Assembly (NCBI GenBank): GCA_016840165.1
Contig: JAEOSU010000093.1
Location: forward strand, 1-19,132
Length of the DNA: 19,132 bases
Reading direction: 5' to 3'
Source: Promethearchaeota archaeon
GTDB lineage: Archaea > Asgardarchaeota > Lokiarchaeia > Sigyniarchaeales > SOKP01
Shown here: positions 1 through 7,150 of the stretch, piece after piece
Position numbering within the stretch: the first letter of the stretch is position 1
How the letters are laid out: every line of letters begins with the position of its first letter
Notes under the pieces: model-generated
Seen by the model: only the letters and a program-made list of their open reading frames with translations
Database searches by the model: none
What the model was told of the DNA's origin: nothing
Translations under genes and position numbers: made by a program

Positions 1-1
1 T

Positions 2-352
2 ACCGGTGATGCAATAAGCAAAACTGTATCCGAGAAAGCATTTAGAATCGACAAGCAACGTGAAAGTGATGAAAAAAGAAAACAATTAAAACCTGATATC
101 CAAACAGCTGGTAAAGCCATTGAAAAATTAGTTGGAGAGAAAGCCTTCATGCAAGAAAAACGTAGACAGTCAGAAGAACTGAAGAAGACTGTTAAACCCG
201 ATTTGGAAACTGCTGGTAAGGCTATAGAAAAGAGTATAGAAGAGAAAGCCTTCATGCAGGAAAAGATAAAAGAACGAAATGTTCAGAAAATGGGATTAAA
301 ACCAGATATTAAAGGAATCGGAGAAAAAATTGAAAAAGATATAGAAAAGCAT
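2..352 (+). repeat. Degenerate coding tandem repeat, 105-nt (35-codon) period, at least 3.5 units visible
   Basis: GAGAAAGC (EKA) starts at 32, 137 and 242. KPD codons start at 89, 194 and 299. The exact 18-mer AGAGAAAGCCTTCATGCA occurs at 136-153 and 241-258. All spacings are 105 nt. Confidence 0.9.
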
Positions 353-388
353 GAATCTCAAAAAGACAATCACTTAGAAAAAAATTAA
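2..388 (+). CDS. C-terminal part of a charged helical repeat protein with ~35-aa tandem repeats (5' truncated by the window edge)
   Basis: The frame of the 149..388 ORF is open back to nt 2: TGDAISKTVSEKAFRIDKQRESDEKRKQL-KPDIQTAGKAIEKLVGEKAFMQEKRRQSEELKKTV-KPDLETAGKAIEKSIEEKAFMQEKIKERNVQKMGL-KPDIKGIGEKIEKDIEKH...; TAA at 386-388. Met149 lies inside a repeat, so it is not the true start. Confidence 0.85.
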   Translation, partial: TGDAISKTVSEKAFRIDKQRESDEKRKQLKPDIQTAGKAIEKLVGEKAFMQEKRRQSEELKKTVKPDLETAGKAIEKSIEEKAFMQEKIKERNVQKMGLKPDIKGIGEKIEKDIEKHESQKDNHLEKN

Positions 389-397
389 AATATCTTA

Positions 398-898
398 CTA
401 AAAATAAATATTAAACCGAAATAAAGAATTAAGATTAATATTATCTAATCTCTTTTTGTATGATTTAATACGAGGATCGATAATTCCGTTAAATTGATTA
501 ATGCTTGTTTCAAATCGAGAATAAAAATCTTCAACAATTTCGTTTAAAATACCTCTTTCTATTTGTAAATTAGTTTTTCTAGTTATAGCGATAACTAATA
601 ACCTTTCTTTTCTGGCATATAACAATCTGGTTTCTTGAAAATTAATCTCTTGAATCTCATCGCTTTTAGATTGAGATTTTATTTCTTTAATAAACAGATT
701 TAATGCATTCAAAAACCCACTAATCAAATCCTCATTTGAGGAAAATTCTGAATCATTTGTATATTTTTTACTCAAAAATAATGCTCCTGTTAAATTATCT
801 AAGAAATAAATTGCATGAAATCGCGATTTTTGCAAATCTATTTTCTCTAGTGCGAATCCATATTCTTTTGGGTTATAATATTCTCTTTTAAACGACAT
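398..898 (-). CDS. Longin-like (longin/roadblock superfamily) domain protein
   Basis: Pattern typical of Asgard longin-like proteins: hairpin AIYFLDNLTGALFLSKKY, helix EDLISGFLNALNLFIKEI, strands IQEINFQETRLLYARKERLLVIAIT, then helix ILNEIVEDFYSRF. Confidence 0.7.
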   Translation of the reverse strand: MSFKREYYNPKEYGFALEKIDLQKSRFHAIYFLDNLTGALFLSKKYTNDSEFSSNEDLISGFLNALNLFIKEIKSQSKSDEIQEINFQETRLLYARKERLLVIAITRKTNLQIERGILNEIVEDFYSRFETSINQFNGIIDPRIKSYKKRLDNINLNSLFRFNIYF

Positions 899-1160
899 AA
901 TTCAATATCCTAAGTTCTTCGATAAAATATTTTGTATCTAATAAATATCAATATAGGATTAATAGACTTCTTTTTAAAATCTAAATGTTATCTTTATGTT
1001 ATTTAGAGTATATATTTCCCCGATCCTCTATCATTAGGTAGCTGAGGTACAAATCCAAATATGTTAGTAATAAAAGAAAATATAAAGAAAAATCAATAAG
1101 ATATAAATAAATTGAAGTTCATATTAGAAATAATATCTTTTTACTAATTTTCTATTTTTG

Positions 1161-1634
1161 ATGGACATGATCGAAAAAAATAGCGAAGAATCCCAAAAAA
1201 ACAAAATTTCTAATGGCTTAATCATAACTAAAGAGCATTTAAGATCGACTATTTTTCCTGAAGAAGTTCAAAATGAAATTGATGAATCTCCATATTATTT
1301 ATTGATCTTCATATCGCGAGAGGATGTGATTAAAATCTTTTGTTTTCCTACGCTAAACAAGAAGATAAAAAAAATACTTATTAAATTAGAGGAATTCTCT
1401 CCAGAAGTAGTCAAAGGAATCTCTGAAGTATTAAACAATCTTCAGCTCAATAAGGATATTCTTCATACCACCGGAATTTGCTATGAATTAGAAAAATGCT
1501 TTTATGAAACTTATTTAGTCGGAGAGGCGCTAGAAAAAGGTAATATATCAATGTCCTTAATAAATGAAAAATTTATGGCAATCCCACGAGTGAATAAGGT
1601 ATCTATAGAAGATATTCCGATGATTGATGAATAA
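1161..1634 (+). CDS. Hypothetical protein, possible C-terminal ACT-like domain (putative ligand- or metal-responsive regulator)
   Basis: 158-aa ORF (TTG 1158; ATG 1161 or 1167 more likely). The C-terminal half fits an ACT-like beta-alpha-beta-beta-alpha-beta pattern (KKILIKL..SPEVVKGISEVL..ILHTTGIC..CFYETYL..FMAIPRVNKVSI). The fold call is inference. Confidence 0.5.
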   Translation: MDMIEKNSEESQKNKISNGLIITKEHLRSTIFPEEVQNEIDESPYYLLIFISREDVIKIFCFPTLNKKIKKILIKLEEFSPEVVKGISEVLNNLQLNKDILHTTGICYELEKCFYETYLVGEALEKGNISMSLINEKFMAIPRVNKVSIEDIPMIDE

Positions 1635-1705
1635 TAATTTGTTAAGTAAAATTCACTTTTTAATGATTAAAATAGAAATATTTATACCTTTTATTTAAGA
1701 TTAAA

Positions 1706-1906
1706 ATGAATGAGAAACCGCCGCCACCTACTCTGCCACCAACTATTGTAATAAATAAGGATTTTTGTTTATTTCATAAAGGCAGAATACAAGGAGAAAG
1801 ATATACTTGCCCGAGATGCAAGACACAATATTGTCTTAATTGCGCTTTAAAAGCAAAACAAGAAGGAAGCCTTTGTGTAAAGTGTAAGCAATTAATCGAT
1901 CTTTAA
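1706..1906 (+). CDS. Small RING-like double zinc-finger protein with N-terminal polyproline
   Basis: Eight ligands spaced C-x2-H-x10-C-x2-C-x4-C-x2-C-x10-C-x2-C; N-terminus PPPPTLPP; TATA-like TTTATA at 1681-1686, about 25 nt upstream of the ATG. Confidence 0.75.
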   Translation: MNEKPPPPTLPPTIVINKDFCLFHKGRIQGERYTCPRCKTQYCLNCALKAKQEGSLCVKCKQLIDL

Positions 1907-1923
1907 TTTCACATCAATTTTTT

Positions 1924-2313
1924 CTAAACTTCTCTCTTTTTTATTGAATCTAATGAACGCCATGCTTTCCAAAAGATTAACCAGAGAATTATAAATATAA
2001 AAATTGTTGTCATAAATGTATAACCCCCAATAAATGGATCAATTAAGAATATGAATGGTATACCGGATATTGAAAAGCCAATAAGATACCCATAACCCCA
2101 ATATCGATTTTTTAAAGCAAACATTATCCCTGGAATCATAGTTGTTAAGATTATAGAAAGAAATGCAAGTACTTCTAAAGATGAGGGTGAATTTAGAATC
2201 ATTAACATATTAAACCATGATATAAAGATACCTAAGAAAAAACAAATTATTGTGCCTATATCAATTCTTAATTCTGGTTCTCTATTTTCTTTTAAGTTCT
2301 TTCTCGGCTTCAT
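1924..2313 (-). CDS. Small integral membrane protein (~4 TM helices), unknown function
   Basis: Four hydrophobic segments, basic N- and C-termini, and a GGAG SD-like motif upstream of the ATG. Confidence 0.75.
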   Translation of the reverse strand: MKPRKNLKENREPELRIDIGTIICFFLGIFISWFNMLMILNSPSSLEVLAFLSIILTTMIPGIMFALKNRYWGYGYLIGFSISGIPFIFLIDPFIGGYTFMTTIFIFIILWLIFWKAWRSLDSIKKREV

Positions 2314-3593: not shown

Positions 3594-3974
3594 ACTTGAC
3601 AGATAGTGTACAGATATATAAGCGTTTGTTTCAGTATAAATTACGAATAAAATCGCTATCTAGCTATAGAATCAATTTCTTTAAATACAAAAATATTTAG
3701 TCAATTTTTCCTAAAACTTGTTTTTGATGAATTCTTAAAATGGCGAAATATCTACAAAATTCAACTAATTTCCTAATCGCGAGCATCTACATAACCATTT
3801 TAAGAATTTTAAGTCGTGGATTTTTGCTCATTATTAAAAATAAGGTTCTTTTTTAATAATTTTATAATACGATTCCGATTATGAAACCTACTATAAAGCT
3901 TAAATTAAAAGCTTAACTAACCTTTTAATTAAATAATTATTTTACCAAAATGAAAAACTTGTGTTTTGATATAC

Positions 3975-5675
3975 ATGACTGAAGAAATAATTAGACGTAC
4001 AACAAGTATATGTCCGGAGTGCCTTCAGACCATTCCTGCCGAAATTTATGTAGATCCTGCTACTAATTTCGTTATGATGCGAAAAAATTGTAATGAACAC
4101 GGTGATTTTAAAGATAAGATTTCGATTGATCCCGAGGAATATAAATGGAGTCAAACCTTTACAGACGATATTGGATCAACCATCAACAATTCCACGAAGC
4201 CAGAAAGCGTCTCTTCAGGTATTAAAGAAATAAAAAATGGTTGTCCATATGATTGTGGTCTATGTGATAACCATAAAAGTGCACCAAACATCTGTTTGAT
4301 TGATATTACTAATAGATGTAATCTTACATGTCCCATTTGCTTTGCTAATGCAAGTGCGAAGGGGTATGTCGTTGAGCCAACCTTCGATCAGCTGGTTCAG
4401 ATTATGGAGCATTTTCGATCTATGAAACCCGTCGCAGCCGTGATGCTTCAAATTTCGGGAGGGGAACCAACTGTGCGTGATGATCTCCCAGAGATTATAC
4501 GAAAAGGCAAAGAACTTGGTTTTACAGAAGTAATGGTAACTACTAACGGAGTTCGTTATGCAAAATCGATTGATTTTATGAAGAAATGTATGGATGCCGG
4601 TATGGATGCGGTTTATTTGCAATTTGACGCAACTGATAATCCCGAAGTCTGGAAAAAGATACGAGGGGTTAATTTGTGGCCCTTAAAGCAAAGAGTCATT
4701 GATAATGCTCGTAAAATTGGGTTCTTTGGTGTTATGTTAGTACCGGTTATTGCCAAAGGTGTTAATGATAAAGAAGTTGGAAACATCTTAGATTATGCAA
4801 AAGATAATAGTGATGTGGTTTCTGGTGTCGTTTTCCAGCCAGTATCACTTTGTGGACGTATTAGTTTCGAGGAATTGATGGATTTACGATATACTACATC
4901 TGACCTTAAAGTAGCAATCAATAAGCATACTAATAATGCTATTGATAAATTCTATCCAATTGCAACAACTGCGAAAATGACGCGCTTATTAGCATGGTTT
5001 GATGATATGCCTGAATTCGGAATGACTAGCCATAAAGATTGCGGATTTGCCACCATCATCGTGGTAAATGAGAAAGATGAATGGGAACCGATTGAAAAAT
5101 ATTTCGATGCTGAAGGCTTAATTCGGTGGTCGAATAAAGTTTATGATATGGTTCAAGAGAGAGAAATTCCAAAACCAACTGGATTCTTGAAAGGTATCAA
5201 TTTAGAAGACTTTGGCGCTATTGCATCAACTGTAGGTAAATTTATTGATGATATGACTGACCTCGGTTATCGTCAGATGATGAAGGCTTATTATTTTGCG
5301 GGAGCAACTCGATATATTAAAAATCCTGAAAAGATCTTAACGAGTAAAACACTACAAGGCTTTGCTCGGTTAGTAGCGTCCCCAAATCTTGCATCAGCAG
5401 CTAACTTTTTACATACCAAAAATCTGATGATCTCGGCGATGCATTTTCAGGATGCATATAATTTTGACCTTGATAGAGTATGTCGCTGCCTTGTCCATTA
5501 CGGAGTAATTGATCCAGATGATAAAGCTAAAGTACTCGAAGTGCCTTTTTGTGCTATGAATACGCTACATAGGGAGCGCTTAGAACTAGGTAATGCCTTA
5601 AAAGGAGCCGAAGCGAAGAAACCGGAAGTTATCCAATCAGAAATAAAGGAACTATTGGAAACTGTAAAAGATTAA
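3975..5675 (+). CDS. tes: Tetraether lipid synthase (GDGT-macrocyclic archaeol synthase; MJ0619-type radical SAM enzyme)
   Basis: N-terminal CPEC...CNEH metal site; GCPYDCGLCDNH auxiliary cluster motif; radical SAM CNLTCPIC; GGEPT; YLQFD; FQPVS..GR; SHKDCG; MHFQDAYNFD..R..RC.VHY; VPFC..N. This motif order matches MJ0619/Tes. ATG 3975 preferred over TTG 3966. Confidence 0.92.
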   Translation: MTEEIIRRTTSICPECLQTIPAEIYVDPATNFVMMRKNCNEHGDFKDKISIDPEEYKWSQTFTDDIGSTINNSTKPESVSSGIKEIKNGCPYDCGLCDNHKSAPNICLIDITNRCNLTCPICFANASAKGYVVEPTFDQLVQIMEHFRSMKPVAAVMLQISGGEPTVRDDLPEIIRKGKELGFTEVMVTTNGVRYAKSIDFMKKCMDAGMDAVYLQFDATDNPEVWKKIRGVNLWPLKQRVIDNARKIGFFGVMLVPVIAKGVNDKEVGNILDYAKDNSDVVSGVVFQPVSLCGRISFEELMDLRYTTSDLKVAINKHTNNAIDKFYPIATTAKMTRLLAWFDDMPEFGMTSHKDCGFATIIVVNEKDEWEPIEKYFDAEGLIRWSNKVYDMVQEREIPKPTGFLKGINLEDFGAIASTVGKFIDDMTDLGYRQMMKAYYFAGATRYIKNPEKILTSKTLQGFARLVASPNLASAANFLHTKNLMISAMHFQDAYNFDLDRVCRCLVHYGVIDPDDKAKVLEVPFCAMNTLHRERLELGNALKGAEAKKPEVIQSEIKELLETVKD

Positions 5676-6598: not shown

Positions 6599-7150
6599 AT
6601 GTGTGCCGAAGAAGCGAAGGAATACGTGTTTAAAGTAACCATACTAGGCGATGCCGCCGTCGGTAAAACCTCTTTAATTAATCATTTTGTTGAAGGTGCT
6701 TTTGAAGAGGATTATAAACCCACTCTTGGAGCAAACATAATAAGGAAAGATGTAACGTTAGAAAAGTTTAATGCCAAAATTCGTTTAATCATGTGGGATC
6801 TTGCCGGACAAGAAAAGTACAATGTAATTCGAAGTATGTATTTCCAAGGGTGTGTAGGTGCGCTCGTTGTTTATGATATTACACGTCATAATACTTTTAA
6901 TAATATTGATTCAAAATGGCTAAAAGATTTTAAGAATTACGTCAAGAAAGAAGGCGCTTATATATTAATTGGCAATAAAAGTGACTTAAAAGACCAAAGA
7001 GCAGTATCAACAGAGGAAGGTAAAAAGCTGGCAGAGGAAATACAAGCAAGTGATTTTATTGAAACCAGTGCCAAGTATGGGGAGAATGTAGAGATGGCTT
7101 TTAAGAATTTGGTTTATCAGATATTACGGAATTATGGAGAGAATGTGTAA
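6599..7150 (+). CDS. Rab-like small GTPase (Ras superfamily)
   Basis: G1 GDAAVGKT, G2 YKPTLG, G3 WDLAGQ, G4 GNKSD, G5 ETSAK; Rab-like IRSMYFQG and LVVYDIT; no C-terminal prenylation Cys. Confidence 0.95.
   Translation: MCAEEAKEYVFKVTILGDAAVGKTSLINHFVEGAFEEDYKPTLGANIIRKDVTLEKFNAKIRLIMWDLAGQEKYNVIRSMYFQGCVGALVVYDITRHNTFNNIDSKWLKDFKNYVKKEGAYILIGNKSDLKDQRAVSTEEGKKLAEEIQASDFIETSAKYGENVEMAFKNLVYQILRNYGENV

Follow-up and report, generated by a model that had tools for sequence, protein, structure and literature searches.

A lineage-restricted gene of Loki-type Asgard archaea encodes exact 35-residue modules predicted to form an extended helical rod

The stretch of DNA analysed here (the window; 19,132 nucleotides) lies at the beginning of contig C81, one of 105 contigs in a genome assembly of 3.6 Mb with 31.6% G+C (genome G000). 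Its first gene lies in a plus-strand frame that is open from base 2 to a TAA stop and encodes 128 residues. The first 68 bases of the window are the exact reverse complement of C95:1-68, a contig-end overlap, and on contig C95 the same frame runs upstream for 251 codons to a conserved start. The upstream ORF and its repeats, anticipated by an earlier sequence-only reading of the window, could thus be recovered: directly joining C95 and C81 gave a protein of 354 amino acids, consisting of an 80-residue helical head and eight KP-anchored modules. The joined ORF begins at a conserved GTG (V-R-K-L-E-E-N), with an alternative TTG start three codons downstream. C95 carries the conserved head and the window the conserved tail, whose degenerate terminal module marks the end of the protein, as in all same-genus orthologues. 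Window positions 2-388 are the 3' end, the last quarter, of a real and conserved gene that is present in single copy in G000. The value of the window itself is modest, since it holds the gene tail only. The partial module at its edge contains ...TVSEKAFRIDKQRES... (Table 1). A minus-strand ORF at 1-255 was rejected as a shadow of the repeat frame.

The repeat gene is part of a gene order that is conserved across genera of the GTDB family to which the window belongs (Table 1). The gene for a 247-residue helical protein is found mostly 90-170 bases upstream of the repeat gene on the same strand; it occurs in 54 of the 68 genomes of the family and in two of the seven genomes of the sister family (f2), and nowhere else. 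In one genus of the window's own family (g5) and in one sister-family genome, the cluster of the 247-aa and longin-like genes is kept with no repeat gene in between. Thus, the repeat protein is dispensable and represents an accessory addition to the cluster. Synteny of the four-gene block at window 398-2313 extends to all genera of the family and holds even in the absence of the repeat gene (g5 and genome G285). In genome G183 (L068:160-2433), a surface protein of 757 aa with a single membrane pass, Ig-like repeats and a zinc ribbon has a paralogue of the 247-aa domain as its cytoplasmic C-terminus, which hints that this domain works at the membrane-cytoplasm interface.

Table 1. Features of the repeat gene and its surroundings; the conserved gene order runs from the DUF362 gene to the radical-SAM enzyme, and positions are those of the window unless a contig is named.
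Feature	Position	Strand	Remarks
DUF362 gene			First in the conserved order
247-aa all-helical protein, no known family	C95:880-1620 (L065)	minus	Directly upstream of the repeat gene
Repeat protein gene			Between the 247-aa gene and the longin-like gene
Contig-end overlap	1-68	plus	Within the repeat, where the assembly branches; gene continues on C95
Partial module (module positions 7-35), TGDAISKTVSEKAFRIDKQRESDEKRKQL	2-88	plus	First 22 residues also end the C95 part
Full 35-residue module, KPDIQTAGKAIEKLVGEKAFMQEKRRQSEELKKTV	89-193	plus	Bears the sole LKKT among 199 modules
Full 35-residue module, KPDLETAGKAIEKSIEEKAFMQEKIKERNVQKMGL	194-298	plus	
Degenerate terminal module and K/E-rich tail, KPDIKGIGEKIEKDIEK...	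299-385	plus	Conserved
Stop codon TAA	386-388	plus	Stop of the convergent longin-like gene follows after 10 bases
Longin-like 166-aa protein	398-898	minus	Weak Fuz_longin_1 match, E = 0.019; convergent with the repeat gene
158-aa protein	1158-1634		
66-aa zinc ribbon	1706-1906		N-terminal polyproline leader PPPPTLPP
129-aa membrane protein	1924-2313		
Radical-SAM enzyme	3966-5675		
Ras/Rab-like small GTPase	6599-7150		Pfam Ras, E = 9e-52

Eight modules are the minimum for this gene. We aligned Logan contigs from four public sediment/soil metagenome runs containing this DNA to window 1-1500. In two of the runs, window 1-127 was carried by short contigs whose depth was about double that of the 2.5-kb contig flanking them (27 vs 12.3 and 23.2 vs 11.1). 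A contig of 345 bases started with window 77-127 and, after 64 bases, entered a near copy of window 87-159, from which another 51 bases led to window 1-106. This path re-enters the repeat one super-unit earlier, which is the signature of a collapsed block of three modules. The nearest orthologue (L007; 76% identical, 456 aa) contains an internal 3-module duplication. Considering the ~2-fold depth, the looping contig and the duplication in L007, the true count is probably 11 modules (~459 aa), with one 3-module block hidden. Orthologues from the same genus have 385, 419, 455-458 or 493-495 residues, differing by whole modules, and carry 9 to 12 KP-anchored modules when the degenerate last one is counted. 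Note that ~2-fold public metagenome depth and branching paths extend over window 1-150, where the MAG assembly collapsed part of the array. Duplications of three modules were seen in G000, L007 and L004. In L004 (L004:8001-9165; GCA_054381395.1, JBQSAH010000012.1) the orthologue was called as two overlapping ORFs of 190 and 234 aa with ~80 residues identical in common, which is a very recent duplication of ~3 modules in the DNA combined with a frameshift or an assembly error.

The sequence-only reading had described an indel-free period of 35 residues, and the wider comparison bears this out. The eight K/R-P anchors of the joined ORF are spaced 35,35,35,35,35,35,35, far beyond chance. All anchor distances in 19 orthologues are multiples of 35, and the 199 modules of the 20 proteins (G000 plus the 19 orthologues) could be stacked with zero indels. 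The exact period of 35 was also found in 8-10 loci from other genera of the GTDB family. The stacked modules were conserved at K1 (83%), P2 (95%), D3 (81%), A10 (75%), I11 (100%), I/V15 (97%), E17 (82%), K18 (99%), A19 (90%), F20 (98%), E/D23 (96%), K24 (85%), R/K26 (99%), E27 (87%), D29 (70%), R32 (73%) and L/I35 (93%). The consensus proposed earlier, KPD[IL]xxAGKAIEKx[VI]xEKAF, is right for the source genome; that of the family differs and reads KPDIEKTGEAIsKsIxEKAFxIEKQRExDxKRMEL.

Orthologous modules shared 74% identity and paralogous modules 47%, indicating that the array is old and position-specific and has not been homogenised recently. Inter-module identity was higher at lags of three and six modules (0.57 and 0.53) than otherwise (0.49), revealing a super-repeat of 105 residues. 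Tandem Repeats Finder reported no array at the DNA level, as nucleotide identity between the modules is only 52-75%. The gene is under purifying selection, with a dN/dS of 0.07 against the nearest orthologue, at a dS of ~1.9 that is near saturation. The absence of indels is a real constraint, a selected property within the main clade, because the modules have diverged to a paralogous identity of 47% while dN/dS is 0.07.

Within the window's own GTDB family, 61 of the 68 genomes sampled contained a member of the repeat family, as did one of seven genomes of the sister family. A search of 301 genomes of the phylum with the module profile confirmed no member outside these two families; a weak match in genome G038 vanished with this profile. 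Homologues in the databases are hypothetical proteins annotated as 'Promethearchaeota archaeon' and are mostly fragments. The same holds for the 38 matches of an exhaustive search of representative sequences, none of which contained a known domain; two of them (P0016 and P0033) were rejected as unrelated repeat proteins. A word-index homologue search with a 4-module profile found no longer or fused forms, a result of limited weight owing to crowding. Thus, the gene for the repeat protein is lineage-restricted and occurs almost exclusively in a single family of Loki-type Asgard archaea, within which genus g5 does without it. Remote relatives have modules of 32, 36 and 37 residues, and so the length of 35 is fixed within the main clade but not across the whole family. 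The only homologue in the sister family (L061:7527-8414, genome G165) consists of six exact modules of 37 residues without Pro (AIEKxVGxxAF...), showing that the period was altered once and then fixed anew. In G165 the repeat gene does not adjoin the 247-aa gene.

We predicted the structure of the repeat protein with AlphaFold2 in two runs, one on the head and five modules with an alignment of 24 rows, and one on four modules with 36 rows of non-overlapping windows stacked in phase. Both runs returned, for each module, one helix of 31 residues and a 4-residue break, L-K-P-D. The pLDDT was 80 and the pTM 0.25 in both cases, a pTM at which the overall shape is unpredicted; AlphaFold2 on shallow alignments of close relatives may miss tertiary or quaternary packing. 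The head was predicted as two helices (residues 13-40 and 42-79) with a pLDDT above 90. Foldseek found no match to the model, neither a compact fold nor a solenoid, and an exhaustive VIA-align search returned only long single helices or coiled-coil chains (Z<=6.6). Stretches of 66-85 residues (two or three modules) superposed on straight coiled-coil helices with 4-6 A rmsd, and therefore neighbouring helices of the model are roughly collinear. What the model shows is an extended rod with gentle kinks, as opposed to stacked hairpins. Thus, a self-contained solenoid or bundle, which would have spoken against the earlier idea of an actin-filament binder, is not what AlphaFold2, Foldseek and VIA-align point to, the prediction being an extended chain of helices.

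The module divides into two parts by its physico-chemical properties. Residues 3-22 carry a narrow apolar stripe (I4, I11, I15 and I22) and the near-invariant E17-K18-A19-F20, whereas residues 23-34 (EKQRExDxKR) form a salt-bridged helix of the ER/K type with no apolar face. The maximal 18-residue hydrophobic moment (0.44, at a mean hydrophobicity of 0.18) falls in the N-terminal half of the module, compared to 0.10-0.20 over the second half. Of all residues 46% are charged, and the protein is basic (pI 9.0-9.3, ~+0.9 charge per module). The high charge content, the dense i/i+3 and i/i+4 acid-base pairs in residues 23-34 and the predicted isolated, extended helices without tertiary contacts are reminiscent of ER/K single-alpha-helix (SAH) spacers and charged rod proteins, for example the SAH of myosin-6/10, and caldesmon. 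In contrast to the repeat protein, SAH domains have no exact position-conserved modules, no invariant hydrophobic or aromatic residues and no Pro linker.

With little more than even confidence, we favour the view that the protein is a length-adjustable, multivalent helical rod with one candidate site, centred on EKAF, per 35 residues. The product of this single-copy gene would be cytoplasmic: the head of two long helices would be followed by the modules (eight assembled, probably 11; 8-12 in relatives), each a 31-residue helix closed by its L-K-P-D linker, and then by the short K/E tail. We infer that the rod works as a multivalent scaffold or spacer. Along its ~45-65 nm it may offer a periodic or multivalent partner one identical docking site every ~5.3-5.6 nm, and its module number changes by whole modules or blocks of three. 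The conservation of four consecutive residues encircles the helix, and E17-K18-A19-F20 may be buried or lie at a kink just as well as serve for docking. An exact length kept over ~200 diverged modules under purifying selection makes this protein a concrete candidate, among only a few, for a scaffold with a regular period in Asgard cells. Even with a partner other than actin, the family neatly illustrates how a natural protein 'ruler' made of modules can evolve its length by whole modules.

The same periodicity could serve self-association, with chains pairing in register to dimers, tetramers or filaments as a coiled-coil cytoskeletal or tether element. As 35 residues are 5 x 7, all modules share one heptad phase; the stripe of Ile at 4/11/15/22 and the small residues found at 7, 8, 14 and 19 are reminiscent of a, d and e positions, and the top structural neighbours in VIA-align are coiled-coil chains. 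The high pLDDT of the head moreover suggests a packed helical hairpin that might nucleate assembly. However, only 4 of the 10 a/d positions per module are hydrophobic, with K18, Q25, D29 and R32 falling into the would-be core, and every module contains a Pro and several Gly or Ser. Modules of 28 or 42 residues, which a pure heptad constraint would permit, do not occur. We therefore consider a self-associating coiled coil unlikely, although it is the likeliest of the alternatives. A canonical two-stranded coiled coil of the tropomyosin type was rejected, as there is no continuous a/d core and only I4, I11, I15 and I22 are apolar in the best heptad register.

We next considered actin as the partner of the multivalent rod. 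The sequence-only reading had assumed an Asgard source with actin, and this proved right: the homologues are from Promethearchaeota, and G000 contains four actin-family genes including Lokiactin (contigs C77, C54, C15 and C4). Two Lokiactin paralogues in G000 are 83% identical. Lokiactin filaments have a rise of 27.9 A (PMC9834061), which corresponds to a spacing of 2 x 27.9 A = 5.58 nm (55.8 A) per strand subunit. A module would span 5.25 nm if all-helical and up to ~6 nm with a stretched linker, values that bracket 5.58 nm, and the 37 residues of the Pro-less relatives would measure 5.55 nm as a continuous helix. On these modelled dimensions, Lokiactin would be geometrically possible as a partner. 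The rod could then be a convergent nebulin-like side-binder or ruler of Lokiactin filaments, in which each 35-residue (or Pro-less 37-residue) module spans one actin subunit of the strand and the number of modules sets the length of filament segments of 45-65 nm or stabilises them. In agreement with this proposal, the rod is basic while Lokiactin of G000 is acidic (pI 5.2), a near-invariant aromatic residue (F20) sits on the charged face like Tyr22 of nebulin, and nebulin modules are likewise predicted as one long helix starting from Pro.

Several findings speak against a Lokiactin side-binder. The protein lacks Nebulin profile similarity (see below). Lokiactin varies little within the GTDB family (95-100% identity throughout), yet the rod is found in 61/68 and 1/7 genomes, with one genus lacking it. 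The conserved neighbourhood contained no gene for actin, profilin or gelsolin. The remote relatives deviate in module length (32, 36 and 37 residues), the 3-module super-repeat matches no actin symmetry, and four consecutive conserved residues do not make a one-faced binding stripe. Taken together, we regard binding along Lokiactin filaments as rather improbable. If true, it would provide the first filament ruler or side-stabiliser outside eukaryotes. To our knowledge, no side-binding or length-setting actin protein has been described for Asgard archaea. Their actin is thought to be regulated mainly by profilins and gelsolins (PMC13716822).

A surface-seeking coat on membrane or lipid, as formed by the amphipathic repeats of apolipoprotein, perilipin, LEA or GvpC type, would also be built from helical repeats punctuated by Pro, and the apolar positions 4, 8, 11, 15, 19 and 22 form a roughly straight 4-3-4 stripe; the hydrophobic moment peaks (0.44) in the N-terminal half of the module. 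The Entericidin model of Pfam, amphipathic and 20 residues long, matched 13 of the 17 full-length orthologues (best E = 6e-10) through the motif T/A-G-x-A-I-E-K at module positions 5-15. Membership in this family was rejected, as only 11 residues per module are covered and neither a signal peptide nor a lipobox is present; the match is a short amphipathic-helix motif common by chance or convergence. With a hydrophobicity of ~0.18, 46% charged residues, a moment of at most 0.44 and, in the stretch of that moment, a net charge near zero, the module falls below typical lipid-binding helices, and one third of it has no apolar face. A lipid coat is thus very unlikely.

Motifs of pentatricopeptide repeat (PPR) proteins are 35 residues long and end in G-[IV]-K-P-D. 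The repeat protein shares with P-class PPR proteins the 35-residue helical period and K-P-D at the module boundary, raising the question of a divergent PPR/TPR-type alpha-solenoid with a helix-turn-helix per 35 residues, possibly binding RNA. The 493-column family profile (A2) matched the designer PPR protein dPPR10 (PDB 6een) with E = 1.8e-4, in register on KPD...I...KA.R[LI]E over six modules, and helix N-cap residues (D, G, S and N) abound at module position 16. Because a designer protein repeats itself perfectly, any faint resemblance of single modules is multiplied; we take the match to be a probable coincidence boosted in this way and not a sign of PPR membership. No natural PPR chain was among the PDB matches. 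Against Pfam at E<=10, neither the two pieces of the protein nor 17 full-length orthologues yielded a PPR (PF01535, PF13041 and relatives) or TPR match, for the orthologues among the 25 most often matched of 32 families. Both AlphaFold2 runs predicted one unbroken helix per module in place of a hairpin, with no packing; Foldseek detected no solenoid, and residues 23-32, about one third of the module, offer no hydrophobic face to pack. We judge a solenoid highly improbable. Further searches with the repeat protein gave no match in NCBIfam or, by phmmer, in the PDB. Searching the PDB with a profile of the head produced nothing significant, and ESM Atlas look-alike searches with the repeat protein and the 247-aa protein returned nothing usable.

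Finally, we examined the sequence likeness to nebulin, WH2 and beta-thymosin on which the first reading of the window had been based. A Pfam scan of the two pieces of the protein (P0001 and P0002) at E<=10 contained no Nebulin, WH2 or Thymosin match, with the caveat that HMMER filters may drop very weak matches, and none of the three was among the 25 most often matched of the 32 families found at E<=10 with the 17 full-length orthologues. Similarity to the nebulin profile was thus not borne out. The nebulin module has D3, a Pro at ~5, SDxxYK at 18-23 with the invariant Y22, and a length of 31-38 residues (10.1101/2021.10.06.463400). The parallel drawn with SDxxYK is loose. At the equivalent site of the repeat protein, xEKAF[RLM], the aromatic residue is Phe in 98% of the modules and Tyr in 2/199, the first position is Ser in 36/199 (18%), and S[DE]xx[YF][KR] fits 14/199. 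The distance from Pro to the aromatic residue is 18 residues, compared to 17 in nebulin.

The protein resembles the simple repeats of nebulin, nebulette, LASP and N-RAP (PF00880) in having tandem helical modules of ~35 residues that start near a Pro, a mid-helix acidic-x-x-aromatic-basic site, conserved charges, a basic and extended character, a variable number of modules and a module length near the actin subunit spacing. It differs in that no sequence relationship is detectable, Phe stands where nebulin has its invariant Tyr, neither Ser nor Asp is conserved, and the register, counted from Pro, is shifted by one residue. Moreover, the period is a strict 35 as opposed to 31-38, the linker has four residues where nebulin has a loop, the super-repeat comprises three modules rather than seven, and there are 8-12 modules rather than about 185. 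Going by the sequences, the repeat protein is no relative of nebulin and is similar to it in design only. Of the earlier proposal, the extended, ruler-like design of an Asgard protein can be retained and the reading of nebulin, thymosin and WH2 motifs has to be given up.

True homology to nebulin or to the WH2/beta-thymosin motifs (PF00880, PF02205, PF01290) has in its favour a likeness by eye (KPD, S/G-E-K-A-F-R vs SDxxYK, and one ELKKTV), and we assign it a next to negligible probability in view of the Pfam results, the motif counts, the shifted distance from Pro and a narrow taxonomic range that speaks against an ancient common origin. The LKKT element that had been taken to recall thymosin and WH2 domains is a one-off, LKK[TV] occurring in 1/199 modules, and its likeness to thymosin/WH2 is therefore due to chance; the family consensus at this place is K-R-M-E. 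The strings VSEKAFR and ELKKTV are both present in the window frame as they were quoted.
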